From positions 1 through 25,052 of IMG/VR virus record IMGVR_UViG_3300017722_002131: a stretch of 25,052 nucleotides of DNA. One strand, written 5' to 3'. Below, in pieces: positions 7,023 to 25,052 of the stretch. The stretch comes from a virus. Taxonomy: Duplodnaviria; Caudoviricetes. A program made the position numbers and the translations under genes. Each line of letters begins with the position of its first letter. Position 1 is the stretch's first letter. The notes under the pieces are model-generated. The model was not told the origin of the DNA, searched no databases, and saw nothing but the letters and a program-made list of their open reading frames with translations.

Positions 7023-10000
7023 TTATTGAGTTCTGTAATTTGATCTTGCAATAGCTACTCCTACTTTGTTTCCATCTATATAAACATTACCTCCTTTTTC
7101 TACTGCAGATACTAGTCTTTCAAGTAATTGAACTACTCTTCCATCTCCTCCTTTATTACCTCCACCTCCTAATAAACTTGTACCGCCTAATACTATATCA
7201 TCTTTACGGAAACGTTGTACTTTACCACCTTGCATTACAAAGTCAGCAGCAACTTCGTCACCACTTAATGCTTTTGCTAATGGGGGTGCTAAAGCTTCCT
7301 GAATTGGTTTTGATTCTCCAATAAATTGACCAGCTAATTGTCCTAAATATCCACCACCAAAGGTTCCTAAAGGACCTAAAACTGAACCTGCTACTGAACC
7401 TATAATACCACCGATGGTTCCGGCTGCTGATGGGATTATTTTTTTTGCTTTGTCTAAACTGTTCATTTTAGAATCTGCTAAAACAGAAGCAATATCCGCT
7501 GCTCCAAATAAAGCACTTAATAAACCTCCTCCTTTAACTGCTTTTCCTATAAATTTACCTGCTTTTCCAATTAAACCATCTTTTAATAACTTCATTGGGT
7601 TTAATTTTGAAGCAACGTTTACTATTCCTTTACCTACAGATTTTACTCCACTTAATGCTTTACTTCCTAAATCGCCTAAAAATCCACCTGCTTTGCTTAA
7701 TAAACCTTTTCCACCAGAAGCTGCTTTACTTAATAAATTTTTAGCTCCACTAAATATACTTTTTGCTGCTCCAGCTAATCCACTTCCTATTTTTCCTACT
7801 ATATTTTTAAAATATCCACCAATATTTTTAGCTACGTTCATAATAGAACTTCCCAAACGTCCAAATATTCCTCCTAATTTACTAAATAAAGGACTTAATT
7901 TACTTCCAAACTTACCTATAGCTAATCCAGCTTTACCTATAAGTTTACCAAATTTTCCTCCCTTCATAGCTAAAGCCCTAAACATTACACTTGGTTTTTT
8001 GAATAAGGTAGTAAGTTGTTTAGATAAACTAGCACGTCCTTTATCTCCTAATAAATCTGTAATTTCACTTCCTCCACCTCCACTAGCATTAATATCTTCA
8101 ACATATAAAGGCTTATCTGTGGTATTTCCTCGTTTTCCTCCGCTTAATAAATCTTTACCAAATCCAAATATTTTATCTAAACCTGTAAATTTTAGTATTG
8201 CTTTACCAGCAATTAAACCTCCTAAAACTTTAACAAGTGGACTCATAATAGGATTATCCATAATTTTAGATATAAAGGTAAAAGCTGTTACCAATCCTTT
8301 TCCAGCCATTATAGCTCCTTCTTTTAAATCTTTAAAAAATTGAGAGTTTTTAATGTCTTGTATATATCCCCACATTTTAGAAAAAAACCCAGGTTCACTA
8401 CTTTTTGAAGTATTTAACCATTTATTTAATTTATCTATACCATCGTATATTGCTCCTCCAGGTTCTAACAAATGACCTATTTTACCAATTGCTGTGTCTC
8501 CAACACTTTTTCCAGCACCAAAAATTTTATTAAAGATAGTTGAAAGTAAACCACCATCGGCTACAAGTTTATCAACAAACCCTTCTACAGTATGTGCTAA
8601 CTCATCTAATCCTTTTTTAGTTTTTGGATCGCCAAACCAAGATTTAAATTTACTTCCAAAAAAATCGGAAAACTTTTTAGATATAGAAACTGTTAGATGT
8701 TCAAACTTTTGATATAAGGGAAATATTGTTTTAAAAAATCCTAACCCACTAGCATTTTTCTTTCTTTCCTTTTCCTCTTCTATTTCTGCTTGTGTTGCTG
8801 CTCCTTTTCTAAAGTCAGCACCTTTTTTAGCATTTTCATTTAAATCCTTTCCAACAGTTTTCATTGTTTTAGAAGCATTTAACATATTAGATAACTCTTC
8901 TTCACTCATTTGAGTGGCTTCTGCTAATTGTTGGAATACAACAGCATTGTTTTTAGCATCAGGACCTAAATCTTTTACAATTTTACCTAATTCAGCAGAC
9001 ATCCCTGTAGCATCTCTAGTTAAAGCAGCATATCTTAATTTATCAAGATTTACTTCTTTACCTGTTAAAGCTTGTAATTCTTGTTCTGCTGAAATACTTT
9101 GTTCAAGATCTAAAAATCCTTTAGATTTACTAATAACATCGTCGATATTAATACCTAATTGTTTTGCTTGAACAACCGCTGCGGTGATTGCTTTTGTTGA
9201 ATTACCAAATGCTAATTTAGTATTATTTGATACTTTAGCTACATCCTGAAATACTGATCTAACACTAGTAGCTACTTTATTTTGTTTAATTAAACCAGCG
9301 GCTGTTTCGTTAATTTCATCGGCTACTACCCCAGCATCTTGGCCTGTAAGTTTGGCCATTTTTTGTACCTCAGCTAATGAATCTGCAGAATATCCTGCGT
9401 ATGTACTAAGGCCTATAAATGTTTTTAATGTATTAGCACTTAATTGTTCAGTGCTATCCATAGCACTATAAATTCCTTCAATAGCACTTTTACTTGATGA
9501 TGCTGTTGGACCTAATCCAGCAATAGAGGACATTAATTGAGATGCTCCTTGTTGAGTAAGAGCTAATCCTCTAGCTAAACCTTGAATTTCTTCCGAAAAT
9601 GTACGGGCTGCGTTTTTTCCTCTTTCAAATTGTTCTTCTAAAAATCCTTTTATTTTACCAAAAATAGATTTTATTCCCCCAACAATTCCTTTAAATAATC
9701 CTTTTATACCTTTTATTAATCCACCAGCAATAACTAATGGGTCTAATAAATTTTTAGCTAAACTTTTACCTAAAGCACCAATAGCAGCTCCCGCTACTCT
9801 AAATTTGCCACTTAGACCAGCTGCTTGAGTACCTCCTTTAGTTACTCTTTTAGCCATAGATTCAGCTGCGGCCGATGCTGATTCAAAAGCTTCGGAGAGA
9901 ACATCACTGTTCACTCCCATTTTTTCTAAAATTTTATTACTACCTTTAAGTATAGAACCTGTTAAACCTTGAGCGGTTTCTAATCGTTTTTGTTCTTTAT

Positions 10001-10523
10001 ATGCTTTATTAAGTAATGCTACCTGATCTTGGTATGTTTGGCTTTGACCTCCAAGCTGAGCAGTAATTTCTTCTAATGTACTTAATTCTTGATCAGTAGC
10101 TATACCTGTTTTTTTTCTTTCTTCTAATAACTGTTTTGATAATTTTAAATCAGCAAATGCTAGTTGATTTTTTTGTTTTAATAATCTAATATCTTTTGTT
10201 GATAATTCTGAAATACCCTGTGATGAGTATCTTAATTTGTCGGAAATATCTTTTAATTTATCAAGACTACCACTTGCTAATTTATATCCTTGATTAGTTT
10301 TACCTACTTGTTCAGATATATTTCTCCATTGTGTAGATAAACCCTCAATTGAACCTTCAGTATCTTTAACAAGATCTCTAGCTCTAATTAATTCTTCTGT
10401 TAATTTAGCAATACCTGAAAAGTCAAAATTTACCTTAACCGCTTCTTCTCCAAGTTGTTTTTTGAGTTTATTTAATTCATCTAACTCTTTTTTAAATTTT
10501 GCTTTATCGTAATTTTCAGCCAT
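7023..10523 (-). CDS. Tail tape measure protein, 1166 aa
   Basis: Long helical Ala/Gly/Lys/Leu-rich protein with amphipathic repeats and hydrophobic Gly-rich segments. Directly downstream of the tube and chaperone genes. Confidence 0.9.
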   Translation of the reverse strand: MAENYDKAKFKKELDELNKLKKQLGEEAVKVNFDFSGIAKLTEELIRARDLVKDTEGSIEGLSTQWRNISEQVGKTNQGYKLASGSLDKLKDISDKLRYSSQGISELSTKDIRLLKQKNQLAFADLKLSKQLLEERKKTGIATDQELSTLEEITAQLGGQSQTYQDQVALLNKAYKEQKRLETAQGLTGSILKGSNKILEKMGVNSDVLSEAFESASAAAESMAKRVTKGGTQAAGLSGKFRVAGAAIGALGKSLAKNLLDPLVIAGGLIKGIKGLFKGIVGGIKSIFGKIKGFLEEQFERGKNAARTFSEEIQGLARGLALTQQGASQLMSSIAGLGPTASSSKSAIEGIYSAMDSTEQLSANTLKTFIGLSTYAGYSADSLAEVQKMAKLTGQDAGVVADEINETAAGLIKQNKVATSVRSVFQDVAKVSNNTKLAFGNSTKAITAAVVQAKQLGINIDDVISKSKGFLDLEQSISAEQELQALTGKEVNLDKLRYAALTRDATGMSAELGKIVKDLGPDAKNNAVVFQQLAEATQMSEEELSNMLNASKTMKTVGKDLNENAKKGADFRKGAATQAEIEEEKERKKNASGLGFFKTIFPLYQKFEHLTVSISKKFSDFFGSKFKSWFGDPKTKKGLDELAHTVEGFVDKLVADGGLLSTIFNKIFGAGKSVGDTAIGKIGHLLEPGGAIYDGIDKLNKWLNTSKSSEPGFFSKMWGYIQDIKNSQFFKDLKEGAIMAGKGLVTAFTFISKIMDNPIMSPLVKVLGGLIAGKAILKFTGLDKIFGFGKDLLSGGKRGNTTDKPLYVEDINASGGGGSEITDLLGDKGRASLSKQLTTLFKKPSVMFRALAMKGGKFGKLIGKAGLAIGKFGSKLSPLFSKLGGIFGRLGSSIMNVAKNIGGYFKNIVGKIGSGLAGAAKSIFSGAKNLLSKAASGGKGLLSKAGGFLGDLGSKALSGVKSVGKGIVNVASKLNPMKLLKDGLIGKAGKFIGKAVKGGGLLSALFGAADIASVLADSKMNSLDKAKKIIPSAAGTIGGIIGSVAGSVLGPLGTFGGGYLGQLAGQFIGESKPIQEALAPPLAKALSGDEVAADFVMQGGKVQRFRKDDIVLGGTSLLGGGGNKGGDGRVVQLLERLVSAVEKGGNVYIDGNKVGVAIARSNYRTQ

Positions 10524-10556: not shown

Positions 10557-10871
10557 CTATTTTTTTGCCTGATTAATGGCTTGTTTAGCTGCTGATGGGT
10601 CAATGAAATCTATAGGTGTATAACTGGTTCTACCATCGGATGATGGGTTTGTATCTTTTTTATTTTGTTTATCGTAGAATTTTTCCAATTCGGAATAAGT
10701 AAATTTCCTTAACCATATAGGCATGTTATATACAGTATCGTGGTCATAACCACCTTTACCGTGAAATACTATTTCGTGGATTTCTTTAAATAAACCAAAT
10801 CTATCCTCAGGCGTCAGGCCAAAAAAAGTTAATAGTGATAGGAATTTCGATGTCCTCCTCAACACCATCAA
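10557..10871 (-). CDS. Tail/baseplate assembly chaperone C-terminal part (T4 gp51-like), probably expressed by frameshift from the upstream gene
   Basis: HEIVFHGKGGYDHDTVYNMPIWLRKF resembles the gp51-type MxxWxR helix motif. Overlaps the upstream ORF by 65 nt, and its annotated N-terminus looks like a shadow of that gene. Confidence 0.7.
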   Translation of the reverse strand: MMVLRRTSKFLSLLTFFGLTPEDRFGLFKEIHEIVFHGKGGYDHDTVYNMPIWLRKFTYSELEKFYDKQNKKDTNPSSDGRTSYTPIDFIDPSAAKQAINQAKK

Positions 10872-11586
10872 CGTTAACGTATTTAAATTTGGTTATAACG
10901 TCGGGTTGCGTTTTTCTAATATAATCACGCAAAGCCCTAGAGTCAGGCGCTAATAGATAATTATCTACGAAATCACGGATGGTTTTCTTATCGTAATCAC
11001 CATTAATAGACAATATAATATATTTCAAACGAGTAGTTAATTCGGGGGATAAATTTTTATTAATTTTTTTAATACCCGCTAATTCATTTTCTATATCTTT
11101 TTCGTCTTTATTAGTTAATAATTTAAATGTAATTTCATTACCTGATTTGGGTAATATAAATTTGAATTCATTTTTATTAGAAGTTAATAAATTTGATTCA
11201 TCTAATTCCTGAGATTCTAATTCACTTAAATCAACTGTTTGTTCTTCTCCATCATACGTAAAGTTATAGTCTTTACCATAACCTAAAATACGAGCAGCAA
11301 TCATAATAGCATTTTTATCTCCAATCAATAAATCATTATAATCAATTTTTGTTAAAATTAATGATTGAAGAAGTTTATCTAATACAACTCCTTGTCTAAT
11401 AAAATTTTGGTTTGTTAAAATATCTTCTTCTCGTGCGGTCATATATTTCATCTCAATTTCTCCTTTAGATAAAGGACTAGTAGATGGATAAAGAAGACCC
11501 TTTGAAGGTAATTTAACTACTTCGGAAGGAAATTTAAATTTTGAAACGGTTTCTGTAGAATCGTTTGTTTCTTTTTGTTTTGTCAT
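10807..11586 (-). CDS. Baseplate hub/tail assembly chaperone (T4 gp26-like), 259 aa
   Basis: VKLPSKG...MKYMTAREEDIL...LLIGDKNAIMIAARILGYG, a second LPKSG...FKLLT repeat, and a terminal FF. Located between the tube and tape-measure genes. Confidence 0.8.
   Translation of the reverse strand: MTKQKETNDSTETVSKFKFPSEVVKLPSKGLLYPSTSPLSKGEIEMKYMTAREEDILTNQNFIRQGVVLDKLLQSLILTKIDYNDLLIGDKNAIMIAARILGYGKDYNFTYDGEEQTVDLSELESQELDESNLLTSNKNEFKFILPKSGNEITFKLLTNKDEKDIENELAGIKKINKNLSPELTTRLKYIILSINGDYDKKTIRDFVDNYLLAPDSRALRDYIRKTQPDVITKFKYVNVDGVEEDIEIPITINFFWPDA
10819..10830 (-). other. Candidate programmed ribosomal frameshift site AAC-UUU-UUU-UGG (+1 or -2)
   Basis: U7 run at 10827-10821, a few codons before the stop of the 259-aa gene. 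The +1 frame continues FF-GLTPEDRF... into the gp51-like ORF. Confidence 0.65.
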
Positions 11587-11687: not shown

Positions 11688-12176
11688 TTAGAAGTTCAAT
11701 ACACAATAATCCATACCTAACACCATAGATATATTTTGTGCTTCAGCTTCTGTATCCCAGTTAAATTCACCGAAATCGGCTGATTTAATAAAGGCACCTT
11801 TAACAACCCATTCAGAAATAATATCACCTACAGGACCTAATACGTTGAGAGTTAAATCTTTCTTATACATATCCGAATAACCATCACGTCCTGTTACTGA
11901 TTCATGGTGTAAACGTACCCATTCCATTACTGCTTGAGCGCCTGAGGGAGTAATAGGGTCAAACAGGGTGAATGTTAAATCGTTCCACTTTAATTTACCT
12001 TTAATTTTACGGTAAACGTTTATATGGTTTAATACGATTTCTTCTTGTGAAAAACCCATACCGCTTACTCCTTTGATTATGTAAGCAGGAATACCGTCCA
12101 CATAAAGAATAAATCTGTTCTTTAATTTGGGTTCAAACGCGGTAAAAAATATTTGATTTGGATCTAAGATTGCCAT
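11688..12176 (-). CDS. Tail tube protein (T4 gp19-like), 162 aa
   Basis: FEPKLKNRF...KGKLKWNDLTFTL...VMEW...YKKDLTL...W.VKGAF motifs. Directly follows the sheath gene. Confidence 0.92.
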   Translation of the reverse strand: MAILDPNQIFFTAFEPKLKNRFILYVDGIPAYIIKGVSGMGFSQEEIVLNHINVYRKIKGKLKWNDLTFTLFDPITPSGAQAVMEWVRLHHESVTGRDGYSDMYKKDLTLNVLGPVGDIISEWVVKGAFIKSADFGEFNWDTEAEAQNISMVLGMDYCVLNF

Positions 12177-12227: not shown

Positions 12228-13958
12228 TTAACCTGGGAATGTTGCGCCTGTAGGAGTAACGTTGAAATCCAAGTAAATAAATTCAGCTGTTTTGGTCGGT
12301 TGTAAGTAAATTTGACCAATTAACTGATTTCTATCAATTGTTTCAGCGTTGTTGTTTGAATCATCCATAATTACTTTAAAAGCATACAAACCTTGTTGTT
12401 GTTGTACTGATTGTAAGTATGGGTTAACTGCTGCTACGAAGTTTTGACGAGTTGCGATTGTATTTTGTTCAAATACTAAGTTATTAGCAATTTCACTAAT
12501 TCTAGTTTTAAGAGCAATTAACAAACGACGAACGTTTACACGATCAAGAGCAGACGATTTAGTTTGTAATGTCTTTTGACCATATACTACAACTCCAGTT
12601 CCCGGGAATGTTGCAATTGGGTTAACTTTATTTTGATATAAATTATTTCTATCTGTTTGAGTTAATTTCTTTTCTGCCCTAACAGCATTTAAAATTCCAC
12701 CACGATTTAAACCAGCAGGTGCAAACCAAGGAGCAGCAATAGTATCGTTTTGAACATATACTGAAGGAATCATTGTTGAAGCAGGTACCCAAGTAAATTC
12801 ACCAGTGATAGGATCTACTGTTTGAATCCAAGGCCAATAAGTAGCAGCATAAGAAGTATCTACTGAATTAGCAGTGTTTGTTGATGATGCAACTGTTCCG
12901 CCATAAAGTTCAGTATCAATTACTGCAATTGCATCTCCACGGTTTTGAGTATTGTTGATTAAATTAGTTAATTGAGCTTTACCGTTTGCATTACCATAAG
13001 TTAAACCAGGAACTGCAATCACGTTATAAGCATATTCATCAGCATTTGACATTAAAGTAATTGCTGTTGAATAGTTAGCAGCTGTAAATCCTTGAATGTT
13101 ACTGTCTGTAATATAATTGTAATAATTAGCGGCTGCTGAACCTGAAATTTCACCTAATGCTGAACCAAAAGTACCACTAATATTTAAAGGGATAGAAGCT
13201 GTGTAAGCATTAGAAGCAACAGTACCTACGTTATTAAAGTAGTTTGGAGTTTTCTGTGCTACGGAAGCTACGGTTACATAATTACTTCTGTTAGGATAGT
13301 TTCCATTAGTATTAATGTATAAATTATCTGAAGAAGTAGAAAATGTTTGGTTACCAATTACTTTTTCAATGTAGTTAGCTTGAGTAGGGTCTAATGATAA
13401 GTTGGGCCAAGTTTCTAATACTGTAGGAACAGGTGCTGTATCGTTACCTTGTCTAATTAATAAAGTAAAAGTACCTGAAGCGGTATTAGCGTTAACAATT
13501 TGCCAACGAATATTATCTTTAGTACCATTTACTAATGAACCACTAACTCCTTCTGAACCCGTACTGTTTTGATTTGAGCCCCAACTTAAAGTTTGTAAAG
13601 TAAATGAAGCTGAGGTTGGGTTAAGAAAACTTCCAATTGTTGATGCTGAACCAGAAGTAACAGCAGGGGCAAAAGCACCTGAAGCAATTCTAGTTACCCA
13701 TAAGCTGGTTCCACCATTTTGGAAATAATTGTAAGCAGCGGTAGATGTAAGAAAAGTATATTGACTTGACCCGCTAATAAAACTACCTCCAAAAAAAGTT
13801 AAATACTCAGTATAACTGGTAATTCGTTTTGGAATATAAGGTTGACCTTTTACAGTAGGACCTATAATTGCTGCTCCAATTGCAGCAGGTATATTGGAGG
13901 TAACTGTTAAATCGTTTTCTCTTGCTAGTACGCCTGGAGATAAAAGTGTTTCTGCCAT
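12228..13958 (-). CDS. Contractile tail sheath protein, 576 aa
   Basis: LSPGVLAREND start, YWPWI, PWFAPAGLNRG, YGQKTL, RVNVRRLL, VFEQN, PTKTAEFI. Confidence 0.97.
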   Translation of the reverse strand: MAETLLSPGVLARENDLTVTSNIPAAIGAAIIGPTVKGQPYIPKRITSYTEYLTFFGGSFISGSSQYTFLTSTAAYNYFQNGGTSLWVTRIASGAFAPAVTSGSASTIGSFLNPTSASFTLQTLSWGSNQNSTGSEGVSGSLVNGTKDNIRWQIVNANTASGTFTLLIRQGNDTAPVPTVLETWPNLSLDPTQANYIEKVIGNQTFSTSSDNLYINTNGNYPNRSNYVTVASVAQKTPNYFNNVGTVASNAYTASIPLNISGTFGSALGEISGSAAANYYNYITDSNIQGFTAANYSTAITLMSNADEYAYNVIAVPGLTYGNANGKAQLTNLINNTQNRGDAIAVIDTELYGGTVASSTNTANSVDTSYAATYWPWIQTVDPITGEFTWVPASTMIPSVYVQNDTIAAPWFAPAGLNRGGILNAVRAEKKLTQTDRNNLYQNKVNPIATFPGTGVVVYGQKTLQTKSSALDRVNVRRLLIALKTRISEIANNLVFEQNTIATRQNFVAAVNPYLQSVQQQQGLYAFKVIMDDSNNNAETIDRNQLIGQIYLQPTKTAEFIYLDFNVTPTGATFPG

Positions 13959-13979
13959 TTCTAATTTATTTTATTTGTT

Positions 13980-13988
13980 TATAAATAT
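13980..13988 (-). promoter_or_regulatory. Putative late-promoter motif ATATTTATA
   Basis: 21 nt upstream of the sheath ATG. A second core ATATTTAT lies at 14047-14054. Confidence 0.6.
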
Positions 13989-14073
13989 GTTAAAATTGTT
14001 CAAAAGTTCATTTAGAAAAACTTATTTAACAGAAACCTTTACAATAATAAATATACCAAAAAAACTAAAAATA

Positions 14074-14979
14074 TTAGTTTTCGTTAATGTTTATTAAATA
14101 CCATCCTACTGCTGGGAAAATAGTTCCTGATGGTGTATTAACATATTGGAATGTTAAGTTACGAGGAGTATTAATTCCTAAAGTATTAAGAAGGGCACTA
14201 CTATTAGGAAGTACTACATTATTATTAGTTGTATAAATAGAAACACCTATAGAAGAAGTTATACTTATAGTAGGTTGACCACCTCCAGCAATAGAAAGAT
14301 AACCAGATTGTTTCCAATCAGGTGTAAAATTTACTATTTGACCATTATTACCTGTACCAAAAGCTAATGATAATTCATTAGAAGTTCCTTGTGATTGAGA
14401 AACGTATACATTATAAGGAGTATTTAAATTTATAGGATAAGCTCCAGCTGATGAGGAATATGTTACATCATTTATTCCTATATAAGTAAAAGTTACGTTG
14501 GTTGCGGTTGTAGCTGTAGTAGCAACATTAGCATAGTTAGCATAAGATGCTGTTCCATAAAAATCAGGAGTTGAACCATTATTTGAACCTGAAATTTTAG
14601 AGGCATATAAAGTATCAGTTGAAGGATTATAATATAATCCCGAACCATCGGAACCTGAATCAAAACGAGGTTGAGCATATCCGTCAGCATTAGGATTTGG
14701 TAAACCACTTTCAGCAGCAAATAATAATCTAAAATTTTGGTTAGTAGTAGCATTATTAGTAACTTTTACAGATTGTGCTACACTACTTGTAGCTGCTGTA
14801 CCTAATAAACTACCTGTAAATCCATCTTTAGATTTTACAGAACCAGTTAATGTTAATGAACCAGAAATGGTTATATCGTAAGCAACAGTACCTGTTAACG
14901 CATCAACGGATTGTGTTACATGCCATGCTTGAATTGTACTATTAGTTGTTATACCTGTTTTAGAAAGGGTTTGTGCCAT
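14074..14979 (-). CDS. Fibre-like virion structural protein, Ser/Thr/Gly/Asn-rich (301 aa)
   Basis: ITISGSLTLTGS, FTGSLLGTA, LYYNPSTDTL and FYGTASYA are beta-fibre-like motifs. Very few charged residues. Confidence 0.6.
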   Translation of the reverse strand: MAQTLSKTGITTNSTIQAWHVTQSVDALTGTVAYDITISGSLTLTGSVKSKDGFTGSLLGTAATSSVAQSVKVTNNATTNQNFRLLFAAESGLPNPNADGYAQPRFDSGSDGSGLYYNPSTDTLYASKISGSNNGSTPDFYGTASYANYANVATTATTATNVTFTYIGINDVTYSSSAGAYPINLNTPYNVYVSQSQGTSNELSLAFGTGNNGQIVNFTPDWKQSGYLSIAGGGQPTISITSSIGVSIYTTNNNVVLPNSSALLNTLGINTPRNLTFQYVNTPSGTIFPAVGWYLININEN

Positions 14980-14980
14980 A

Positions 14981-16186
14981 TCATGAATAAATATTCAGGA
15001 ATTTATTAATTGACACAATTACTTGATCAGGTTTTATAGTTTTTGTACATTCAAAATGTCTTGGTGTATCTTTATGTTCAGGACACCATTCCCAATCACC
15101 AGGATTTAACCAATGGGTATTAAAACATCCTCTACATACATTAGGATCTGAATTGAATATTCTTTCACAATCTTGGAATTCAGTATATGGTTCACTAAAT
15201 CCGGAAATTAAAATAGTTGGGGTATTTAAAGCCCAAGATAACCAACTCATTCCACTACCAACACCAATAAAAGCATCAGCATATTTAATATCAACCATTC
15301 TGTTTTCTAATGGAAAATCACCTGTTTTATCTATAACATTTTTTAATGTTCCACCTAGTTTAGAATCATGCCACTTATCACCTAAAGGTTCTTGTGTAAT
15401 CATAACTACTTTATAACCTTTTTCGTTTAAATAATCAATAACTGTTTGCCATCCTTTAGGATACATCCAATACTTGGCATGAGCCGAGGCATGAGGAGCA
15501 ATTACAACGTATTTACCCTCTATTTGTTTACCTCTATCTTTAAAATTAACAATAGGTTTTACTTCAGTAAAAGGTAATCCTAAAATATCTGTGGAAGTTT
15601 GTTGTAAGGGAATATCTTTAAATTCACGAGGGTGTTTATTTTCAACTCGCTTATTATTTTCGTCATAAAACCAACCAACACAATACATAGCATATAAATC
15701 ATGTACTCTAGTTCCTGGTTTTACGAATTCAATTTCAGGATATTTACTTTCAAACCAATCATTGTGATGGGTTGAACATATTACTTTACATTTATGTTTT
15801 TTTCTAAATTCCTCAATATAAGGAAACCATGCTAATGTATCACCTAAAGCTCCTGAATCTAGACACAAAAATACTCTTTTACCTTCGGCATTATATTTGT
15901 GTTCAAATTCTAAGTTGCCTGTAGATTTTTCAAATGCTTGAATTTTATAATTAACAAAATACTCTTTAGGAACCTTAGTCCACATATTATTATTAATAGT
16001 AGTTTGCCAAATTAATTCATCATTATCTTGGTTAATAAATTTAACCAAATATTCTTTATCATAACTTCCAGTAATTTCTAAAAAAGCACATTGTACAAAA
16101 TGTACGAAAAAATTATTACTAGGTTTTTTAGGTTCAATACCTAATTTTGTTGTGTTGTTGTATTCTTTAATTAGTATATCTTTCAT
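14981..16186 (-). CDS. TibC/Aah-like (BAHT family) protein O-heptosyltransferase homologue, 401 aa
   Basis: N-terminal beta domain ending EYFVNYKI; GALGDTLAWFPY (catalytic Asp equivalent D116); HAKYW...GW; FIGVGSGMSWLSWA; ISGFS; iron-finger cysteines C351, C354, C368, C380 in CRGC...WCPEHKDTPRHFECTKTI. Confidence 0.9.
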   Translation of the reverse strand: MKDILIKEYNNTTKLGIEPKKPSNNFFVHFVQCAFLEITGSYDKEYLVKFINQDNDELIWQTTINNNMWTKVPKEYFVNYKIQAFEKSTGNLEFEHKYNAEGKRVFLCLDSGALGDTLAWFPYIEEFRKKHKCKVICSTHHNDWFESKYPEIEFVKPGTRVHDLYAMYCVGWFYDENNKRVENKHPREFKDIPLQQTSTDILGLPFTEVKPIVNFKDRGKQIEGKYVVIAPHASAHAKYWMYPKGWQTVIDYLNEKGYKVVMITQEPLGDKWHDSKLGGTLKNVIDKTGDFPLENRMVDIKYADAFIGVGSGMSWLSWALNTPTILISGFSEPYTEFQDCERIFNSDPNVCRGCFNTHWLNPGDWEWCPEHKDTPRHFECTKTIKPDQVIVSINKFLNIYS

Positions 16187-17123
16187 ATATTTTTAATAAC
16201 TCTTTTGAACGATTAAACCAAGATAAAGATTCAGCATGTCCTCTAGCTCGTTGTCTATAAGAATCATAATTGCTAACAATATCATCTATACCTCTTAGTA
16301 ATTCAAAGAAATCACGAGGTGCTCTCCACATACCAAAAAAATCAGTTTCCAATTCAATCCAACCATTAATAGGTAAACCACAAGCGGCGGCCTCTAATAT
16401 TGTTAAATTAGGATGACCAGCTTCTAATTCACTAGGATGCATAAATATGGTATGATTTTGATATAATTTTACTAAATCGTCTTGACTTGGTTCAAACACA
16501 ATATCTAATCTAGGATAAGCTAATGTCCAAGGATTTTCATTAAAAAAATTCCTATTATTCCAAGGACCAGCAACTGTTATAGGAAATCCTTTTTGTGCAG
16601 CAGCAGCAATAGCTAATCCAAATCCTTTTCTATCGTGTGAACCATAACCTCCTAATCCATTATTAGCTAAACATAATAATCTGTGTTCTTCTAAGGGTGT
16701 TTCTCTTGGTACAAAAAAATCGGTATTAACACCGTGAGAAAAATATTCTACTTTATCTGTATCAAAATAATTTACTAAATAACGAGCAGGAACTAAAGAT
16801 ACAAGTGAATTTTCCATTGCTTGTAAATTTTCTTTATATACCTGAGATTCTTTACCATAGTAATAAGCGTGATGGTCATGGAATTGAAATATGTAAGGAA
16901 TATTTCTTGCATGTAATCTATTTGCTAAATTAGCAACATGTACCATTACAATGTCGTATTGGCAATATTGGCCTGAATGGATTTCTTCTTCGTATTTAAT
17001 ATCTACTTCGTGTCCTAATTTTTCTAAATTACATTTAAATTCCCATACTATTTTTTCAATAGCTCCCCAAGATGGTGGTGGAATTTGGATTCCACAATTT
17101 GGATGGACTTGACAAATTTTCAT
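16167..17123 (-). CDS. GT4-family (GT-B) glycosyltransferase, 318 aa
   Basis: IPPPSWGAIEK N-terminal loop, HGVNTDFF, DRKGFGL, HPSELEAGHPNLTILEAAACGLP. Confidence 0.88.
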   Translation of the reverse strand: MKICQVHPNCGIQIPPPSWGAIEKIVWEFKCNLEKLGHEVDIKYEEEIHSGQYCQYDIVMVHVANLANRLHARNIPYIFQFHDHHAYYYGKESQVYKENLQAMENSLVSLVPARYLVNYFDTDKVEYFSHGVNTDFFVPRETPLEEHRLLCLANNGLGGYGSHDRKGFGLAIAAAAQKGFPITVAGPWNNRNFFNENPWTLAYPRLDIVFEPSQDDLVKLYQNHTIFMHPSELEAGHPNLTILEAAACGLPINGWIELETDFFGMWRAPRDFFELLRGIDDIVSNYDSYRQRARGHAESLSWFNRSKELLKIYERYTN

Positions 17124-19078
17124 TTTCTTGTAAATAACCCGTTATTTTTTAAATCTTGTGTAGATGCAAATCTTTCTTCTATTAAATTTCCTGATGTTTT
17201 ATCATATATTTTAAATATAATATTATATGTTTTATTTAAATCTAAAGATAATATTCTATAAAATTCAATCTTATTTTCTACTTCAAACCATTCTTGATCA
17301 ACTAAAACATCTTCATCATAAGTAAACATTTCAATTTTTTTACTATCATAACTGTTAGATATTTTAACATAAATTACAAATTCATTTTCGTTTTGTGTAG
17401 GTAAAACAGTATAATATTCTACTCTTGAATAGTCTTTATGGTCAAATTTATTTCTAGCTACATCTTCATGTACCCAATGAATATTATTAAAATCTTTAAA
17501 TTTACCATAAATTAGGTTTTCTAAACTATTAGATTCAGAACCAAATTTATATTGTAAATCATCATATTGTTTACTGTTTTCTATAAAAGGTAAATTATTA
17601 GTTAAAAACTCGGGTTTGATAGCTAAAAACCAAGTCATTAATTGATTACCTTCACTAGCTACATTTTTTAAACAATAAGCAGGTTTTTTATTTAATATTT
17701 CGGATATTGAATCAATATAAGAAACATCATTTAATATGTAATCATAATTTACATAAAATAATTTTTTAATACCTATGTGCTGTGCTAAAGATGCTGCATT
17801 ATAATAATTTGTATAAACTGTAGGACCATGATATACGTCATTATCATTACCTCTTAAATTGATATGTACATCGTAATTATCAAAATAAGCACGATAAGTA
17901 TCATAAAAACTATGTTTAGTTAAAATGTTATTTTTGTCATAAACACAGTAATCAACTAACTCTTGTAATTCTGTTGGAACAGGAACATGAGATGTTAAAA
18001 TTATTTTTCGCCCAGTTTCTTTTAATGCTAAAATACATTCTTTTGTAGTTTCAACAATACTACTTAAAACAGGATATGTTGATACAACAAATGCTTCTTC
18101 GGAAATATCAATTATAGATTTTTGTTGTAAAATTGAATCTATAATTCTACAATTTCCTTTAAAATCATCAAATTCTATATAAGATACATTTTTAAACGTA
18201 TCAAAGTAATTTAAATATACTGGAAGGTTGTAAATTAATACCGGTAAATTCCATGAAATAGCTTCTCGAATTACTAAAGGCATTGTTTCTTTATCATTTT
18301 CATTTCCTCTAGAGGTAAATAAAAACAAATCCATTGCCTTATAAAAATTATCTACATCACGTCTTTCATTCCACCAAGTTATATTACTTGGTTTATTTTC
18401 CATTAAAGGTTTCCAGTAATGTTGGAAATTTTCTGCTTGATTACCTACACAATGAAATTGATATTCAGGTAATGACCTAGCATATTCAAAAAATTCTGCT
18501 TGGTTTTTTCTTGGTGTAAATAAACCAACATGCAGTACGTGTTTTTTATTAGGATCTAATCCTAAAGATTGTAGTGCTGTAGTTCTATCAGGGCGTTCCT
18601 TATATTCAATAGGATATTCAACTAACACAGCAGGAATATCAATATTTTTATATTGTTGTATCTGCCAATTAGATACAAACATAAACTTATCAGGAAAAAA
18701 TTGTTTGTTTTCTGTATTATAAGATGAATCGTGTGATGTTTCTACTATGATATATTTTCTATCAGGATTATAAATTTGTTTTGCAACATCATAATCCATA
18801 AAAAACTCAGGGATTTCCTCTAAATGAACAATATCCGGTTGAACCCTGTTAATAATATTAACTATTTCATGTTTATCTTCGTATAGAGTAAAGAATTTGT
18901 TGGGATTTAACAGGTTGCGTATTTTATCTCTTTGAACCACTAATATACCACCAGTACAGTCTACCCATTCTACTAAATAGACATCAAAATCATTTTTTAA
19001 TAATTCTATTTTTTTGGTTAAGTATTGAGGTAAACCACCTGTTGATAAATGGGGTGCAACAAATAACAATTTTTTCAT
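17120..19078 (-). CDS. Two-domain glycosyltransferase: N-terminal GT4 plus C-terminal putative GT-A-like domain, 652 aa
   Basis: PHLSTGGLPQY, HVGLFTPRKNQ and ETMPLVIREA (Ex7E) in the first ~320 aa. Second domain has VVSTYP...IILTSH...YDKNN...HG...FYVNYDYIL. Confidence 0.8.
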   Translation of the reverse strand: MKKLLFVAPHLSTGGLPQYLTKKIELLKNDFDVYLVEWVDCTGGILVVQRDKIRNLLNPNKFFTLYEDKHEIVNIINRVQPDIVHLEEIPEFFMDYDVAKQIYNPDRKYIIVETSHDSSYNTENKQFFPDKFMFVSNWQIQQYKNIDIPAVLVEYPIEYKERPDRTTALQSLGLDPNKKHVLHVGLFTPRKNQAEFFEYARSLPEYQFHCVGNQAENFQHYWKPLMENKPSNITWWNERRDVDNFYKAMDLFLFTSRGNENDKETMPLVIREAISWNLPVLIYNLPVYLNYFDTFKNVSYIEFDDFKGNCRIIDSILQQKSIIDISEEAFVVSTYPVLSSIVETTKECILALKETGRKIILTSHVPVPTELQELVDYCVYDKNNILTKHSFYDTYRAYFDNYDVHINLRGNDNDVYHGPTVYTNYYNAASLAQHIGIKKLFYVNYDYILNDVSYIDSISEILNKKPAYCLKNVASEGNQLMTWFLAIKPEFLTNNLPFIENSKQYDDLQYKFGSESNSLENLIYGKFKDFNNIHWVHEDVARNKFDHKDYSRVEYYTVLPTQNENEFVIYVKISNSYDSKKIEMFTYDEDVLVDQEWFEVENKIEFYRILSLDLNKTYNIIFKIYDKTSGNLIEERFASTQDLKNNGLFTRK

Positions 19079-19092
19079 AACAGTGTTATCAA

Positions 19093-19124
19093 TAAATATA
19101 ATAACAAAGTATTAAATTACCAAA
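19093..19124 (-). promoter_or_regulatory. Bacteroidota-type -33/-7 promoter candidate for the glycosyltransferase cassette
   Basis: Coding strand TTTG (19124-19121), 20 nt spacer, TATATTTA (19100-19093). One mismatch to TTTG-N19-21-TAnnTTTG, and it overlaps the ATATTTAT core. Confidence 0.5.
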
Positions 19125-19125
19125 T

Positions 19126-19344
19126 CTATTGAGGATTTCCTACTTTACTTTGAAAATATTGTTGTAGAAATGATAATGGGTATTGATATGATTTTTTATT
19201 ATAAGGAATGGGTGCAAATGGTCCTAAAGGATTTCCTATTTTGTATGAAGTTTTAACTTCTTTTGCTTTATTAAATATTTCTAATTCTAAAGCATCGCTT
19301 GCTTGATAACCTAAAAAACTATATGTTGATATCCAATTAATCAT
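19126..19344 (-). CDS. Hypothetical protein (72 aa)
   Basis: ATG 1 nt after the upstream stop. Fills the gap between genes on the coding strand. Confidence 0.65.
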   Translation of the reverse strand: MINWISTYSFLGYQASDALELEIFNKAKEVKTSYKIGNPLGPFAPIPYNKKSYQYPLSFLQQYFQSKVGNPQ

Positions 19345-19345
19345 A

Positions 19346-20065
19346 TTAATAAATAGTTAAAACAAAATCAAATCCAGCTGTATTACCCCCATAACCTGTA
19401 GCCATATCTTGTGTACTAGAACCTGCTGAATTAAGTGTTGTTGTTACTCCACCTCCATTAACTGTTGTACCTGTATATTTTGCTGAGCCATTAATAGATA
19501 AATCAGCTGTAGCTCCTGGGAAGTTTGGGGATGATGCTATTACAATTTCCCAATACGCTCTAAAAATTAAAGGAGAAACATTTGGGGTTGCAGCATCAAG
19601 AGGTCCGTAAGTTCCACCACCATTTCCTAATGATAATACTACCCCACTACCTAGTGTTATATAAGAATAAGTACTAGTACTATCTCTTAAAGTTAAATTA
19701 ACATCTTGAACATTATACTCCACACCTGGTGGAGGGAAGGGAACATCTGCTGGTAAGTTATTATAAACTGTTAAATTACATTTATATTCTGTACTATCAT
19801 AAAAATAATCTTTAACATTTGTAGGTGATATAGAACCTGAAGAAAAAGCTCCAAACTTAAAATCACTTGAAGCAGGAGTTAAATTATATATTCTATTACC
19901 CGCTGAAGTATTACCATTTCTTCCCCAAGCATTGTAACTTATAGTATTATTACCATTAGGTCCTTCAAAATAACTTAAAGACGACATAGTAGCAAAACTA
20001 GTAGCTGACCCTGGGGTGCTACCATTTGCTTTAGAATATATGTCTCCAAAAGATACTGTTGCCAT
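19346..20065 (-). CDS. Putative fibre-tip/adhesin protein (239 aa)
   Basis: Starts 5 nt after the S74-fibre gene. N-terminal VSFGDI...FKFGAF segment followed by a Gly/Ser/Thr/aromatic beta-rich domain. Confidence 0.5.
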   Translation of the reverse strand: MATVSFGDIYSKANGSTPGSATSFATMSSLSYFEGPNGNNTISYNAWGRNGNTSAGNRIYNLTPASSDFKFGAFSSGSISPTNVKDYFYDSTEYKCNLTVYNNLPADVPFPPPGVEYNVQDVNLTLRDSTSTYSYITLGSGVVLSLGNGGGTYGPLDAATPNVSPLIFRAYWEIVIASSPNFPGATADLSINGSAKYTGTTVNGGGVTTTLNSAGSSTQDMATGYGGNTAGFDFVLTIY

Positions 20066-20070
20066 AACTA

Positions 20071-23000
20071 TTATTTTTTAAGTTCGTTTATTTGTTCTTG
20101 TAATTCTTTTATTTTGTTATTTAATTCCTTAATAGCTTCAATTAATAATCCATTCATATTACCATATGCTACTGATTTCATTCCTGTTTTATTATCAGTG
20201 TGTACTACTTCTGGTAATACTTTTTCAACTTGTTGTGCTATTACACCCGCATGTCTATGAGTATTGTCTTTATCACCATCAATTCTTACATAAGTTACAC
20301 CATCAATTTGTTCAATTCTATCAAGTGAACCTGTAATTCTTTGAACATCACCTTTTACTCTTTCATCGGAGAATGCTGTAATATCATCTGTTGCATAAAT
20401 TGATATACCACTTACTGCTCCTGATACATGCAATGGATAACTTGGTGATGCTGTTTTAACACCTACTCTTCCATTAGGAATATCAAAGTATATTAAATTA
20501 GTGCTTTGTACTAATGTAGAACTAGAAGCATATACTGCATAGAAAGGTTGGAATCCAAATGTAGCACCACTAATACCTGATGTACCGTTAAACGAAACAC
20601 CGCTTGTACCTGCTGTACCACTAGAACCTGAAGTGCCATTTCTTCCACTTGTACCGCTAGCACCGTTTTGTCCATTAGTACCACTAGTACCACTAGAACC
20701 AGATGTACCTCCTCTACCACTTGTTCCATTTACACCTGAGGTACCCATAGTACCACTAGATGCTGATGAACCTGAGGTTTGAGATAAACCTGATTGACCT
20801 GCGGCACCTGAAGTTCCTGTTGTTCCAGTAGAACCACTTGTTCCACTTACTGCACTTTGTCCATTTGCACCTGCATTTCCAGATGTACCATTTGTACCTG
20901 ATGAACCTGAAGTTGCACTTAAAGCACTTGCTCCTGCATTACCAGCAGCACCATTTGAACCTGAAGTTCCAGATGAACCTGATGTTCTGCTTAAACCACT
21001 AGCTCCTGCTGCTCCAGATGAACCAGCTGTACCTGTAGATCCTGAAGTTCCGCTTATTGCACTTTGTCCGTTTGCACCTGCTGCTCCAGATGAACCAGCT
21101 GTACCGCTTGAACCACTAGTTCCGCTTATTGCACTTACACCATTTGCACCTGCTGCTCCAGATGAACCAGCTGTACCACTAGAACCACTAGTTCCGCTTA
21201 TTGCACTTTGCCCGTTTGCACCTGGGTTACCTGATGTACCGCTAGTTCCACTTGAACCTGAAGTTGCACTTAAAGCACTTGCTCCTGCTACACCAGCTAC
21301 ACCACTTGAACCTGAAGTACCTGAGCTACCTGAAGTATTACTTAATGCGCTTGCACCTGCTACTCCTGGAGCACCATTTGTACCACTTGTTCCTGAAGAA
21401 CCTGAAGTTGAACTTAAAGCACTTGCTCCTGCATTACCATTAACACCATTTGTACCGCTTGTACCTGAACTACCTGAAGTTCTGCTTATACCTGAAGTAC
21501 CATTATTACCTGATTGTCCATTAGTACCTGATGTTCCTGTGCTACCTGAAGTGCCGCTTACTGCGCTTTGACCATTTGCGCCTGCGTTTCCGCTAGTACC
21601 TGATGTTCCTGTGCTACCTGAAGTGCCGCTTACTGCGCTTTGACCATTTGCGCCTGCAGCACCACTAGTACCTGCTGTACCACTAGAACCACTAGTTCCG
21701 CTTACTGCACTTATACCATTTGCACCTGCATTACCGCTTGTACCTGATGTACCTGTTGAACCACTAGTTCCGCTTACAGCACTTTGACCATTTGCGCCCG
21801 CAGCACCACTAGAACCACTTGTTCCTGAAGAACCAGAAGTACCATTATTACCTGATTGTCCATTAGTACCTGAAGTACCTGAACTACCGCTAGTTCTTGA
21901 TATACCGCTTGTTCCTGCTACACCTGAGGTACCCATAGTACCACTTGATGCGCTTGAACCTGAGGTTTGACTTAATCCTGATTGACCAGCAGCACCACTT
22001 GTACCATTTGTACCTGATGAACCTGAAGTACCACTTACTGCACTTTGACCATTTGCTCCAGCATTACCGCTTGTACCTGCTGTACCGCTTGAACCTGAAG
22101 TACCACTTACTGCACTTTGACCATTTGCTCCAGCATTACCGCTTGTACCGTTTGTGCCTGAAGATCCTGATGTACCACTAACGGCACTAGCTCCGTTAGC
22201 TCCAGCATTACCACTAGTACCAGCAGTTCCTGATGAACCACTAGTTCCACTAACAGCACTTGCCCCGTTTGCACCCGCAGCACCATTAGTACCGCTTGTT
22301 CCTGAAGAACCTGAAGTTGCACTTAAAGCACTTAAACCAGCAGCACCTGCTATACCTGAAGTACCACTAGTACCACTTGAACCGGATGTTGCTGATGAAC
22401 CACTTGTTCGTGAAGCACCACTAGCACCAATTGTACCTGAAGTACCTGTGCTTCCTGATGTTGCGCTTGAACCTGAGGTTCCTGAAGCACCACTTTGACC
22501 ATTTGTACCACTTGTACCTGACGAACCACTAGTACCACTTACTGCACTAGCACCGCTTGCTCCAGCAGCACCATTTGTACCTGAAGTACCTGAGGAGCCA
22601 CTTGTTGCTGAAGAACCACTAGTTTGAGATGCACCACTTAATCCAGCTGTACCACTTGTACCAGATGAACCACTTGTTGCACTTGATCCTGAAGTTCCTG
22701 AAAGACCACTTTGACCATTTGTACCTGAGGTTCCTGATGAACCTGAAGTTCTTGATATACCACTAGTTCCATCAATACCTGATTGACCATTTGTACCAGA
22801 AGTACCTGAGCTACCTGATGTTCTACTAGCACCTGAGGTTCCATTTACACCACTTGTACCCATAGTACCACTTGATGCACTTGAACCTGAAGTTGCACTT
22901 AAACCTGATTGACCTGCAGCGCCACTTGTACCTGATGTACCAGTTGAACCACTAGTTCCTGATGAACCACTAGTTTGAGATGCACCACTAGCACCTACAG

Positions 23001-25052
23001 TACCTGATGTTCCTGAACTACCAGAGGTTGCTGAACTACCACTAGTTCTAGATATACCACTTGTTCCATCTACACCACTTGTACCTGAAGTACCTGATGA
23101 TGCTGAACTACCACTTGTTCTGCTTATACCACTAGTTCCAGCATTACCTGAGGTACCATTTGTACCTGAAGAACCTGAGCTACCAGAAGTTGCGCTTGAA
23201 CCTGATGTTTGAGAAGCGCCTGATTGGCCAGAAGTACCTGATGTACCTGTACTACCACTTGTTTGAGATGAACCTGAAGTTCCTGCTACACCTGATTGTC
23301 CGTTAGTACCTGAAGTACCTGTGCTTCCTGATGTTGCACTAACACCCGAAGTACCTGCAACTCCATTAGCACCATTTGTGCCTGATGTACCTGTTGAACC
23401 AGATGTTGCACTAACTCCTGAAGTACCAGCAACTCCATTAACACCATTTGTACCTGATGTACCTGAAGATCCCGAAGTTCTACTAATTCCTGAAGTTCCA
23501 TCTATACCTGATTGTCCATTAGTACCACTAGTACCACTTGAACCTGAGGTTCTAGATATACCGCTTGTTCCTGCTACACCTGAGGTACCCATTGTACCTG
23601 AAGATGCACTTGAACCACTAGTTTGAGATAATCCTGATTGTCCAGCAGCACCTGAAGTTCCGCTTGTTCCAGTAGAACCTGAAGTTCCTGAACTACCGCT
23701 TGTTTGTGAAGCACCGCTAGCACCGATTGTACCTGAAGTACCTGTTGAACCTGAAGTTCCGCTTGAACCAGAGGTAAATGAACTACCACTTAATCCTGCT
23801 GTACCTGAAGTACCTGTTGAACCTGAAGTTCCTGAAGAACCTGAGGTAAATGAACTACCACTAGCACCTGTTGTACCACTTGTACCGCTTGAACCTGATG
23901 TTGCGCTTGAACCTGAAGTTCTGCTTATGCCTGAAGTTCCGTCTACACCTGAAGTACCACTTGTACCTGAAGATGCACTTGAACCTGATGTTCTAGATAA
24001 ACCTGAGGTTCCATTATTTCCTGAAGTACCGTTTGTACCAGAAGAACCTGAACTACCTGATGTACCACTTGAACCTGAAGTAAATGAGCTACCGCTTTGA
24101 CCTGCTGTACCTGAAGTACCTGTAGATCCTGAAGTTGCACTTGAACCGGAGGTTTGAGCTATACCGGAAGTACCTGCTACCCCTGAAGTACCTGAAGTAC
24201 CTGATGTTCCAGAACTTCCACTTGTTTGAGATGAACCGCTTGTTCCAGCTACACCTGATTGTCCATTTGTACCACTAGTACCACTTGAACCAGATGTTGC
24301 ACTTGAACCAGATGTTCTACTTATACCACTAGTACCATCAATTCCTGAAGTACCACTTGTACCTGAAGATGCTGATGAACCACTAGTTCTGCTTATGCCT
24401 GAAGTACCAGCTACCCCTGAGGTACCCATAGTACCACTTGATGCACTGCTACCTGAGGTTGCACTTAAACCTGATTGACCAGCAGCACCTGAAGTTCCAC
24501 TTGTACCAGTTGAACCACTAGTTCCGCTTGAACCACTTGTTTGTGAAGCTCCGCTTACGCCTATAGTTCCAGAAGTACCACTTGAACCTGAAGTTGCACT
24601 TGAACCTGATGTTCTTGATATACCAGAAGTTCCGTCTACACCACTTGTACCTGAAGTACCTGATGAAGCACTTGAACCTGAAGTTCTACTAATTCCTGAA
24701 GTTCCGGTATTTCCTGAAGTACCGTTTGTACCTGAGGAACCACTTGAACCACTAGTTCCTGAAGAACCTGAAGTGAATGAGCTACCACTAGCACCTGTTG
24801 TGCCTGATGTTCCAGAAGAACCTGATGTTGCACTTGAACCTGATGTTTGGCTTATACCACTTGTTCCAGCAACACCTGAAGTACCTGAAGTACCTGTTGA
24901 ACCTGATGTACCTGAAGAACCACTTGTTTGTGATGAACCAGATGTTCCAGCAATACCTGATTGTCCGTTTGTACCTGATGTACCACTTGAACCTGAAGTT
25001 GCTGATGAACCACTTGTTCTGCTAATACCACCAGTGCCATCTACTCCTGAGG
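20071..25052 (-). CDS. Giant Gly/Ser/Thr-rich collagen-like (G-X-Y) fibre protein with C-terminal peptidase S74 chaperone (partial, >=1659 aa)
   Basis: The frame stays open for 207 more codons upstream of the tracked Met at 24429, to 25050 ([16 protein letters not shown]...). That Met is an internal repeat residue, so the true start is outside the window. Confidence 0.93.
20074..20370 (-). other. Peptidase S74 intramolecular chaperone (autocleaving trimerisation) domain
   Basis: SDERVK cleavage motif (20370-20353), [32 protein letters not shown], and a terminal coiled coil. Confidence 0.92.
20560..25052 (-). repeat. Coding 9-bp (tripeptide) tandem repeat with 72-bp and 0.7-1.2-kb higher-order units
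   Basis: About 500 triplets dominated by GTS/GSS. Exact 72-bp-period duplications at 21522-21585/21594-21657 and 22019-22077/22091-22149. Confidence 0.95.

Follow-up and report, generated by a model that had tools for sequence, protein, structure and literature searches.

A TibC/Aah-family glycosyltransferase beside a collagen-like phage fibre: a predicted fibre O-glycosylation system in aquatic tailed phages

The closest described relatives of the system considered here are the TibC–TibA and Aah–AIDA-I pairs of E. coli, in which a glycosyltransferase (GT) of the BAHT family (TIGR04414; PDB 4RAP, 4RB4; PMC4358343) is encoded next to a long, repetitive, serine-rich surface protein. Here we describe a similar arrangement in the tail module of a virus, IMG/VR record IMGVR_UViG_3300017722_002131, the whole of which (25,052 bases) was analysed and is referred to below as the window. 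A 401-amino-acid (aa) TibC/Aah-family enzyme is encoded there close to a giant, collagen-like fibre. In our view this enzyme is likely to place a nucleotide-activated sugar on serines of the fibre, with the other GT domains of the locus probably extending the glycan.

The window's enzyme resembles TibC and Aah in its family, its catalytic residues and the cysteines of an iron finger, but differs from them in being phage-encoded, in belonging to a separate and well-supported branch and in having changes at the thumb and at P300 (D270/K271 and G310). Its neighbour is a Gly-X-Ser fibre with an S74 domain, whereas that of TibC and Aah is a beta-helical autotransporter, and whilst TibC adds single heptoses, the window encodes three further GT domains. 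In streptococcal serine-rich repeat adhesins, Ser/Thr repeats are glycosylated by clustered GTs that include GtfA and GtfB. In the window, GtfA appears just among generic GT-B-fold matches (Z 16.6), and family scans of the window's proteins reported no match to GtfA/GtfB or SecA2/SecY2, such a scan absence being weak evidence. In Bacillus BclA and in vent-worm collagens, threonines are glycosylated and the sugar replaces hydroxyproline. Among phages, the GTs of mycobacteriophage Che8 and its relatives decorate virion proteins, as proposed here (Freeman et al. 2023, as cited in PMC12619734 and PMC11256854); the targets are capsid and tail-tube subunits, and the available parts of these two papers name no BAHT enzyme or collagen-like fibre. 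Comparable with the fibre studied here, and with its probable form, are the collagen-like tail fibres of E. coli prophages (EPclP), described in the available part of PMC3368898 as Gly-X-Y triple helices that end in a trimerisation domain. According to the same source, however, they are rich in proline and charge and recombinant EPclA is unglycosylated, whereas the window's fibre repeat has 2 prolines and 26 charged residues and is far longer.

BAHT protein heptosylation, mycobacteriophage virion glycosylation and phage collagen fibres are, then, each already known. What the window adds is a cultured relative lacking both enzyme and repeat, the joint absence of the two in one clade, a Ser-free fibre as control, a GT-A fold in the cassette and a survey of host sugar donors. 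A search of main texts that took in few subscription papers found no publication joining the three, and none on a phage BAHT enzyme, TIGR04414, phage Mel-JY01 or these repeats.

The enzyme and its proposed acceptor

The two central genes are as follows.

14981..16186, minus strand: 401-aa TibC/Aah (BAHT)-family transferase (TIGR04414), the proposed initiating protein O-glycosyltransferase
20071..25052, minus strand: giant fibre of at least 1659 aa, its 5' end beyond the window, with Pfam Collagen and Peptidase_S74 matches; the proposed acceptor

The initial annotation of the window, made from the sequence alone, had recognised a TibC-type GT, and profile searches agree: against TIGR04414 the 401-aa protein reaches 317.5 bits, where 200 is the cut-off, and it aligns with TibC (4RAP) at E 3e-58 across residues 45-396. 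TibC modifies serine and not threonine; D110 is its base, T226, K230, R286 (which selects adenine) and W305 are donor residues, four cysteines bind iron, and the F265/V266 thumb is required for the ring and for activity (PMC4358343, in the part available). D110, K230, R286 and W305 correspond to D116, K238, R296 and W315 in the window's protein, T226 is conservatively replaced by S234, F368 is retained as F378, P300 is Gly (G310), and C351, C354, C368 and C380 form a predicted iron-binding finger. Across the best 120 of 2783 homologues, all of them close relatives, D116, K238, R296, W315 and the four cysteines never vary. R296 persists in the window's sub-clade, whereas members further out on the branch mostly carry another residue there, and the donor may accordingly vary within the branch. 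No autotransporter domain was found among the window's proteins in family scans, the neighbour being a Gly-X-Y/S74 fibre; this lowers the case for an autotransporter heptosyltransferase system as such, though not for one that works like it.

The fibre open reading frame (ORF) runs off the window's edge, and a search for its 5' end with an exact 43-base pattern matched no other viral contig. The visible part contains 498 Gly-X-Y triplets (about 20563-25050) in one unbroken register across the first 1496 residues, of which Gly, Ser and Thr make up 75.7%, in line with the roughly 1490 residues of mostly Gly/Ser/Thr noted initially. Gly occupies 83% of first positions, Thr 45% and Ser 22% of X positions and Ser 73% of Y positions (472 Ser and 243 Thr in all), whilst the 17% of first positions that are not Gly hold Ala, Arg, Gln or Phe and recur every 5-8 triplets. 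Pfam Collagen matches with 431 bits (E 3e-132). The protein also has a short head region, a C-terminal Peptidase_S74 domain (PF13884, E 3e-17) and many PHROG tail-fibre matches. The fibre is collagen-like with interruptions, and the description of it as mucin-like has to be given up; a mucin-like or random low-complexity tract was rejected on the strict triplet register over all 498 triplets. In one freshwater sequencing run the summed contig depth over window positions 20700-25052 rises to about 1000 times that of unique genes, a figure that is not a copy number and that suggests many other repeat-bearing genomes in that sample.

Pairing of enzyme and repeat in phages and bacteria

If the fibre is the acceptor of the TibC-like enzyme, the two might be expected to travel together. 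In an enzyme-anchored survey, for which the best 80 of 248 viral stretches were fetched, gene order is kept among the relatives and a repeat ORF is present in 32 of the 34 loci with at least 6 kb upstream; the pairing within the window's clade partly reflects shared descent. Amongst annotated phage records, 4 of 50,697 hold the enzyme. In one of them, Microcystis phage Mel-JY01, a repeat ORF with 138 motifs lies just upstream of a fusion protein with the enzyme at its end, and its chain mixes Gly-Pro-Pro triplets running into Gly-Thr-Ser triplets. The true Mel-JY01 repeat ORF is on the plus strand (PP395634.1, L081:2-3049) and probably wraps the record start, GenBank having two hypothetical proteins on the opposite strand; the phage's sheath is 50% like the window's and its stated host is Microcystis, though the nearest other relative infects Flavobacterium. 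A 735-kb phage (two records) has a repeat ORF adjoining relatives of all three of the window's GTs, with the enzyme in a different fusion; in the record LR756501.1 there are 1932 repeat-pattern matches genome-wide, most of them distant from the enzyme gene. A 299-kb phage (L119:646-16593) encodes repeat proteins of up to 5316 aa.

The pairing extends to bacterial assemblies, where 15 of 17 loci have a repeat ORF (14 by the strict motif); the other two are 4-kb contigs, one of which ends in a Gly-Thr-Ala tract. Methylobacter (one complete chromosome), Polaromonas, Arenicellales and other Proteobacteria encode, as the partner, a secreted protein or lipoprotein of 100-350 aa, 14-917 bases from the enzyme gene, with a tract of 6-50 triplets directly behind the signal peptide (signal peptides and lipoboxes were read by eye). 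No match to the window's phage genes is seen at the proteobacterial loci. Ser makes up 63-86% of Y positions in five of six other partners measured, the sixth having 40% Ser plus 43% Thr. At seven loci (L250, L251, L255, L257, L261, L414 and L422), lipoprotein-like ORFs of 100-220 aa that are largely Gly-Thr/Ser-Ser flank the enzyme, and some end in an Asp run.

A FastTree tree of 163 enzyme domains, from which 21 duplicate, fragmentary or split loci and domains shorter than 280 aa were left out, places 110 rows—all 74 viral rows and 36 genome rows, some of the genome rows being phage contigs inside bins—on one branch (SH 100, length 0.64). All 73 repeat-linked rows (45 viral, 28 genome) fall within that branch, whereas none of the 53 classical rows has such a repeat within up to 6 kb, one having a Gly-Ala-Thr tract. 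The classical rows include plasmid-borne Aah/TibC-type genes, three of five of which lie beside annotated AIDA-type proteins. In two classical genomes (G063, G064) the DNA repeat pattern matches far from the enzyme, at least partly in simple DNA repeats.

The converse survey was anchored on the repeat (167 loci from 3 of 64 collection parts, with flanks for the first 80 rows, or 57 contigs). Among the 52 contigs with a real repeat ORF the enzyme lies in the flank of 12, and 8 more have it among 30 that were searched whole; most of the enzyme-negative contigs are less than 40% complete. For the control, 73 contigs were chosen by their Gly-Pro-X repeats. The enzyme was matched in 2 of them, both belonging to the 4 with Gly-Thr/Ser-Ser ORFs as well, and in none of the 69 without that motif (926 kb). 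The initial annotation had proposed the co-occurrence of BAHT homologues with such repeats as a test, and it is borne out in distant phages as well as bacteria, alongside negative controls. This favours the earlier proposal that the TibC-type enzyme glycosylates its neighbouring fibre.

Relatives lacking the enzyme point the same way. Among cultured phages, Flavobacterium phage vB_FspM_immuto_2-6A (Immutovirus, NC_055915) is closest to the window by its tail genes: its sheath, tube and hub are 51%, 59% and 61% like the window's, and its gene order is the same through to DNA polymerase A. Its 160-kb genome has no BAHT match, no annotated GT between fibres and sheath and no match to the Gly-Thr/Ser-Ser repeat. 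The tube gene was used to fetch 80 loci, 20 of which extend for at least 8.2 kb upstream, several being near-duplicates: repeats are present in the locus or record of 12 of the 13 with the enzyme (one ends too early) and in 0 of the 7 without it. The window's GT4 and GT-A genes, described below, are missing together with the TibC-like enzyme in relatives without repeats. On a sheath-plus-tube tree of 38 rows, selected for carrying either both traits or neither of them, at least five changes of state occur. A further fragment (L619:1-3210) encodes a Pro-free, Ser-free fibre of Gly-Ala-Gln and Gly-Asn-Thr triplets, followed by a methyltransferase and unassigned genes, and the enzyme was not found there, which fits a Ser-specific acceptor.

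Could the pairing simply be the hitch-hiking of one mobile block, with no enzyme–substrate link? Few independent gains and losses can be counted in the window's clade, several of the 'bacterial' rows are, as noted, phage contigs in bins, and the enzyme gene is lower in G+C content than its locus in 8 of the 9 bacterial loci measured. The partners, however, have only the repeat in common—they range from phage fibres of unlike architecture to lipoproteins and other secreted proteins, and their genes may be tandem, convergent or divergent with respect to the enzyme—and we regard hitch-hiking as a highly improbable account.

A different question is what form the glycosylated repeat takes. It might be a flexible, disordered scaffold or a polyglycine-II bundle, nearer to the mucin-like picture: Gly is replaced every 5-8 triplets in the window's fibre, the bacterial tracts have only 6-50 triplets, and two bacterial partners have non-triplet serine. 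Set against this are the register, unbroken over 1496 residues, the joining of Gly-Pro-Pro and Gly-Thr-Ser triplets in one Mel-JY01 chain, and the S74 domain, a trimer-folding chaperone of fibres (PMC7824862, in the part available). We consider the disordered form doubtful, and prefer an interrupted triple helix.

Accessory glycosyltransferases, gene context and sugar donor

The remaining features of the locus that we could place are listed here.

19346..20065, minus strand: 239-aa protein, function unassigned; relatives come after the fibre in part of the clade
19126..19344, minus strand: 72-aa ORF, function unassigned
17120..19078, minus strand: 652-aa two-enzyme protein with GT4, GT-A-fold and C-terminal beta-rich domains (Pfam, model)
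16167..17123, minus strand: 318-aa divergent GT4-like glycosyltransferase (weak Pfam, PHROG)
14074..14979, minus strand: 301-aa protein, a fibre-like lead only
12228..13958, minus strand: contractile tail sheath, a context gene
11688-12176, minus strand: tube
10807-11586, minus strand: hub/assembly protein
7023-10523, minus strand: tape measure

All genes of the window are on the minus strand, in the order fibre, two small genes, three GT genes, 301-aa gene, sheath, tube, hub, tape measure, baseplate genes and a PolA fragment. The overlaps between the GT genes first reported, 4 nt for the 652-aa and 318-aa ORFs and 20 nt for the 318-aa and 401-aa ORFs, are reproduced from the ORF coordinates. 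The placing of these genes between the fibre and the 301-aa gene and sheath stands as to order, with the amendment that the 239-aa and 72-aa genes intervene between the fibre and the first GT. A protein-atlas search with the 239-aa protein gave no match and named no family. The 301-aa protein is probably a short fibre or other structural protein, which is a lead only, and its gene is missing between GT and sheath in many relatives. Three further genes, encoding 1080 aa (1856-5098), 446 aa (5438-6778) and 212 aa (1215-1853), have no Pfam or PHROG match but keep their order in immuto_2-6A and are probably baseplate parts. An assembly or frame artefact was rejected: the same ORFs occur in four IMG/VR contigs at 99-100% identity, and 14 sequencing runs, 13 of them labelled freshwater, contain at least half of the GT region's words. 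A promoter and terminator scan of 13900-20200 was uninformative, its 40 promoter-like sites being close to the expected 39.3. In three RNA libraries near-identical pieces occur, as contigs only, over the sheath, tube, 301-aa gene and fibre, and in one of them over the TibC-like gene.

Profile and fold matches support the suggestion of up to four catalytic-type domains, all of them predicted. The 652-aa protein begins with a GT4 domain (residues 1-322; PF00534, E 1e-12, above cut-off; GT-B fold, Z 19.4) with an acidic motif E264-x7-E272. In an AlphaFold model built from 63 sequences (mean pLDDT 83.9), searched whole, a second domain at about 325-577 aligns with GT-A enzymes, namely glycogenin (1zcu; Z 14.2, root-mean-square deviation 3.2, 175 aligned residues) and B4GALNT1 (9h6j; Z 13.6). 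An invariant N444-Y-D446-Y stands in place of the DxD motif, no family can be named, and a beta-rich domain ends the protein. The 318-aa protein matches Pfam GT4 under the cut-off (E 2e-5), a PHROG glycosyltransferase family (E 2e-8) and, weakly, GT sequences in the PDB; both glutamates of its E234-x9-E244 motif are invariant in 36 relatives. The fold matches of the GT-B domain of the 652-aa protein are tied and generic, and include WaaG, WaaB, the T4 DNA alpha-glucosyltransferase (Z 18.4) and GtfA.

Relatives carry further genes in the same slot, among them FkbM methyltransferases, an NDP-sugar epimerase, an RmlD-like gene and a C-methyltransferase. This swapping of sugar-modifying genes suggests a variable glycan. 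In one relative with a tube 96% like the window's (L557:1-3235), the slot holds another cassette of two TibC-like genes, an RmlD-like gene and a C-methyltransferase, and the contig ends before the fibre.

Genes of this kind also bring to mind the host envelope, and the cassette might alter the lipopolysaccharide (LPS) core or surface glycans against superinfection, its place by the fibre gene being that of a variable late module. FkbM and epimerase genes would suit surface polysaccharides too, WaaG and WaaB are LPS enzymes, the GT9/LPS heptosyltransferase profiles PF01075 (E 9e-11) and RfaQ (E 1e-9) match the 401-aa protein weakly, and cyanophage GT clusters are read in this way in the part of PMC7824862 available. 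The TibC-family match, however, is stronger by far (E 1e-94) and extends to the iron finger. An envelope target would moreover leave unexplained both the short secreted Gly-Thr-Ser proteins adjoining this branch of enzymes in bacterial chromosomes and the absence of the repeat in relatives without the enzyme, and we think it very unlikely.

More weight attaches to the possibility that the TibC-like enzyme alone acts on the fibre and that the GT4 and GT-A domains have other targets, such as capsid, sheath, DNA or a small molecule; this is compatible with the first step of our proposal, a fibre serine as acceptor. The window's GT4 genes find no match in proteobacterial carriers of enzyme and partner, the T4 DNA alpha-glucosyltransferase is among the tied GT-B matches, and the mycobacteriophage enzymes modify capsid and tail tube (PMC12619734 and PMC11256854, in the parts available). 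Against it, the GT genes overlap here and, in distant phages, occur in several kinds of fusion with the enzyme, the GTs are missing along with the enzyme in repeat-free relatives, and the GT-B fold matches are generic and tied. On balance separate targets seem unlikely, and we lean towards joint action of the GT domains on the fibre.

The initial annotation saw in these genes a self-contained pathway, a description that lacks support: the window has no donor-synthesis gene. Among 21 large carriers of the enzyme, 1 has a GmhA-type domain, 2 have a near-full RfaE kinase and 5 have weak matches to it. An RfaE-type nucleotidyltransferase is matched in 9 of 48 records, none from the window's clade; no fragment of that clade (at most 62% complete) has a match to RfaE domain II, and 1 of its 21 viral fragments has an epimerase. 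In two large phages (G033, G036) an HldE-like nucleotidyltransferase and kinase lie directly behind the enzyme, with heptose enzymes as their best NCBIfam matches, below cut-off. Loci of large phages with an HldE-like nucleotidyltransferase/kinase operon are L640:354-2635, L636:759-3378, L638 and L639; the operon follows the TibC-like gene in the first two, and in three cases it is accompanied by a gene of 128-133 aa that is cupin-like by eye. No GmhA was seen in these four records, so the cupin-like gene may supply the isomerase step. On the bacterial side, heptose kinase is found above cut-off in five of five carriers tested and in 155 of 251 genomes of the phylum of G097, a bin titled Flavobacteriales (this group name and the one given below for G096 being read from bin titles). 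A member of the Bacteroidota is the probable host of the window's phage, and heptose is a plausible transferred sugar.

Weight, mechanism and significance of the pairing

Several observations weigh against fibre glycosylation by the TibC-like enzyme, or against parts of the mechanism. Glycosylation is predicted from family and gene pairing, and the fibre's place in the virion is likewise predicted from the S74 domain and the tail-module position. The hydrophobic thumb pair is missing: TibC F265/V266 align to D270/K271, beside a gap. The thumb loop has another conserved sequence in the window's group and is shorter or absent in distant members; as a speculation, an altered thumb would suit a substrate unlike the beta-helix that threads the TibC ring. 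The regular Gly gaps would interrupt a triple helix, and the L619 fibre shows that a Pro-free Gly-X-Y fibre can exist without the enzyme. In the family of G096 (a bin titled Winogradskyella), read as the Flavobacteriaceae and probably including the host of the nearest cultured relative, heptose kinase was found in just 1 of 151 genomes.

The co-occurrence also has its exceptions. Two loci (L041, L042) have the enzyme with no repeat ORF in 7-10 kb upstream (10 kb for L041), a four-triplet pattern matched nowhere in the 636-kb phage LR756504, which carries the enzyme, and 37 of the 110 branch rows lack a repeat in the DNA at hand, many being short fragments. Conversely, G012 (148 kb, 84% complete) has long repeats and no enzyme match. 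In two Methylococcales the same secreted family has Ser-rich but non-triplet tracts, so the enzyme may read Ser-rich tracts and not the collagen register. The relatives that lack both enzyme and repeat are all fragments except immuto_2-6A, and the joint absence comes down to four independent pairs on supported branches (p 0.125, not significant). As a separate observation, a 197-aa gene near the L041 and L042 cassettes resembles a 2OG-Fe(II) oxygenase by eye.

The mechanism we propose has parts of unequal standing. The soluble TibC-like enzyme would add the first sugar to the fibre in the cytoplasm, and the acceptor is likely to be serine, chiefly at the Y position. Elongation of this first sugar by the two GT4 domains and the GT-A domain is an evenly balanced matter. 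That the donor is an ADP-activated heptose or something similar, supplied by the host or by phage genes beyond the window, is a possibility to which we give slightly less credence. With somewhat more confidence than for elongation, we suggest that S74, a trimer-folding fibre chaperone, would drive trimerisation from the C-terminus into an interrupted triple helix. The collagen helix rises 0.286 nm per residue, and the visible part of the fibre would be about 0.43 micrometres long. More tentatively, the sugar may stabilise and shield a helix almost without proline or charge and vary its surface between relatives. Sugar on Y-position hydroxyls could stand in for proline as the stabiliser, and threonine glycosylation is named as a collagen stabiliser in the available part of PMC3368898.

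If this proposal is true, O-glycosylated virion fibres would be common in aquatic phages and no mycobacteriophage curiosity: an estimated 1500 or so stored viral stretches match the enzyme patterns and about 3400 match the repeat pattern. The BAHT family would reach beyond autotransporters, the fibre would be a candidate for proline-independent stabilisation of collagen, and a short, genetically encoded tag with a soluble enzyme would become available for glyco-engineering. The pair is present in a cultured phage, Mel-JY01, and in cultured Methylobacter strains. Taken at its broadest, and here our confidence falls a little short of even, the largely viral and hitherto undescribed branch of TibC enzymes may be a dedicated 'serine-collagen' glycosyltransferase with (Gly-Thr/Ser-Ser)n as its portable tag; aquatic phages of 150-735 kb may use it to build sub-micrometre, glycan-stabilised fibres whose coat is varied by gene swaps, and some bacteria may apply such a pair to their own lipoproteins and other secreted proteins.

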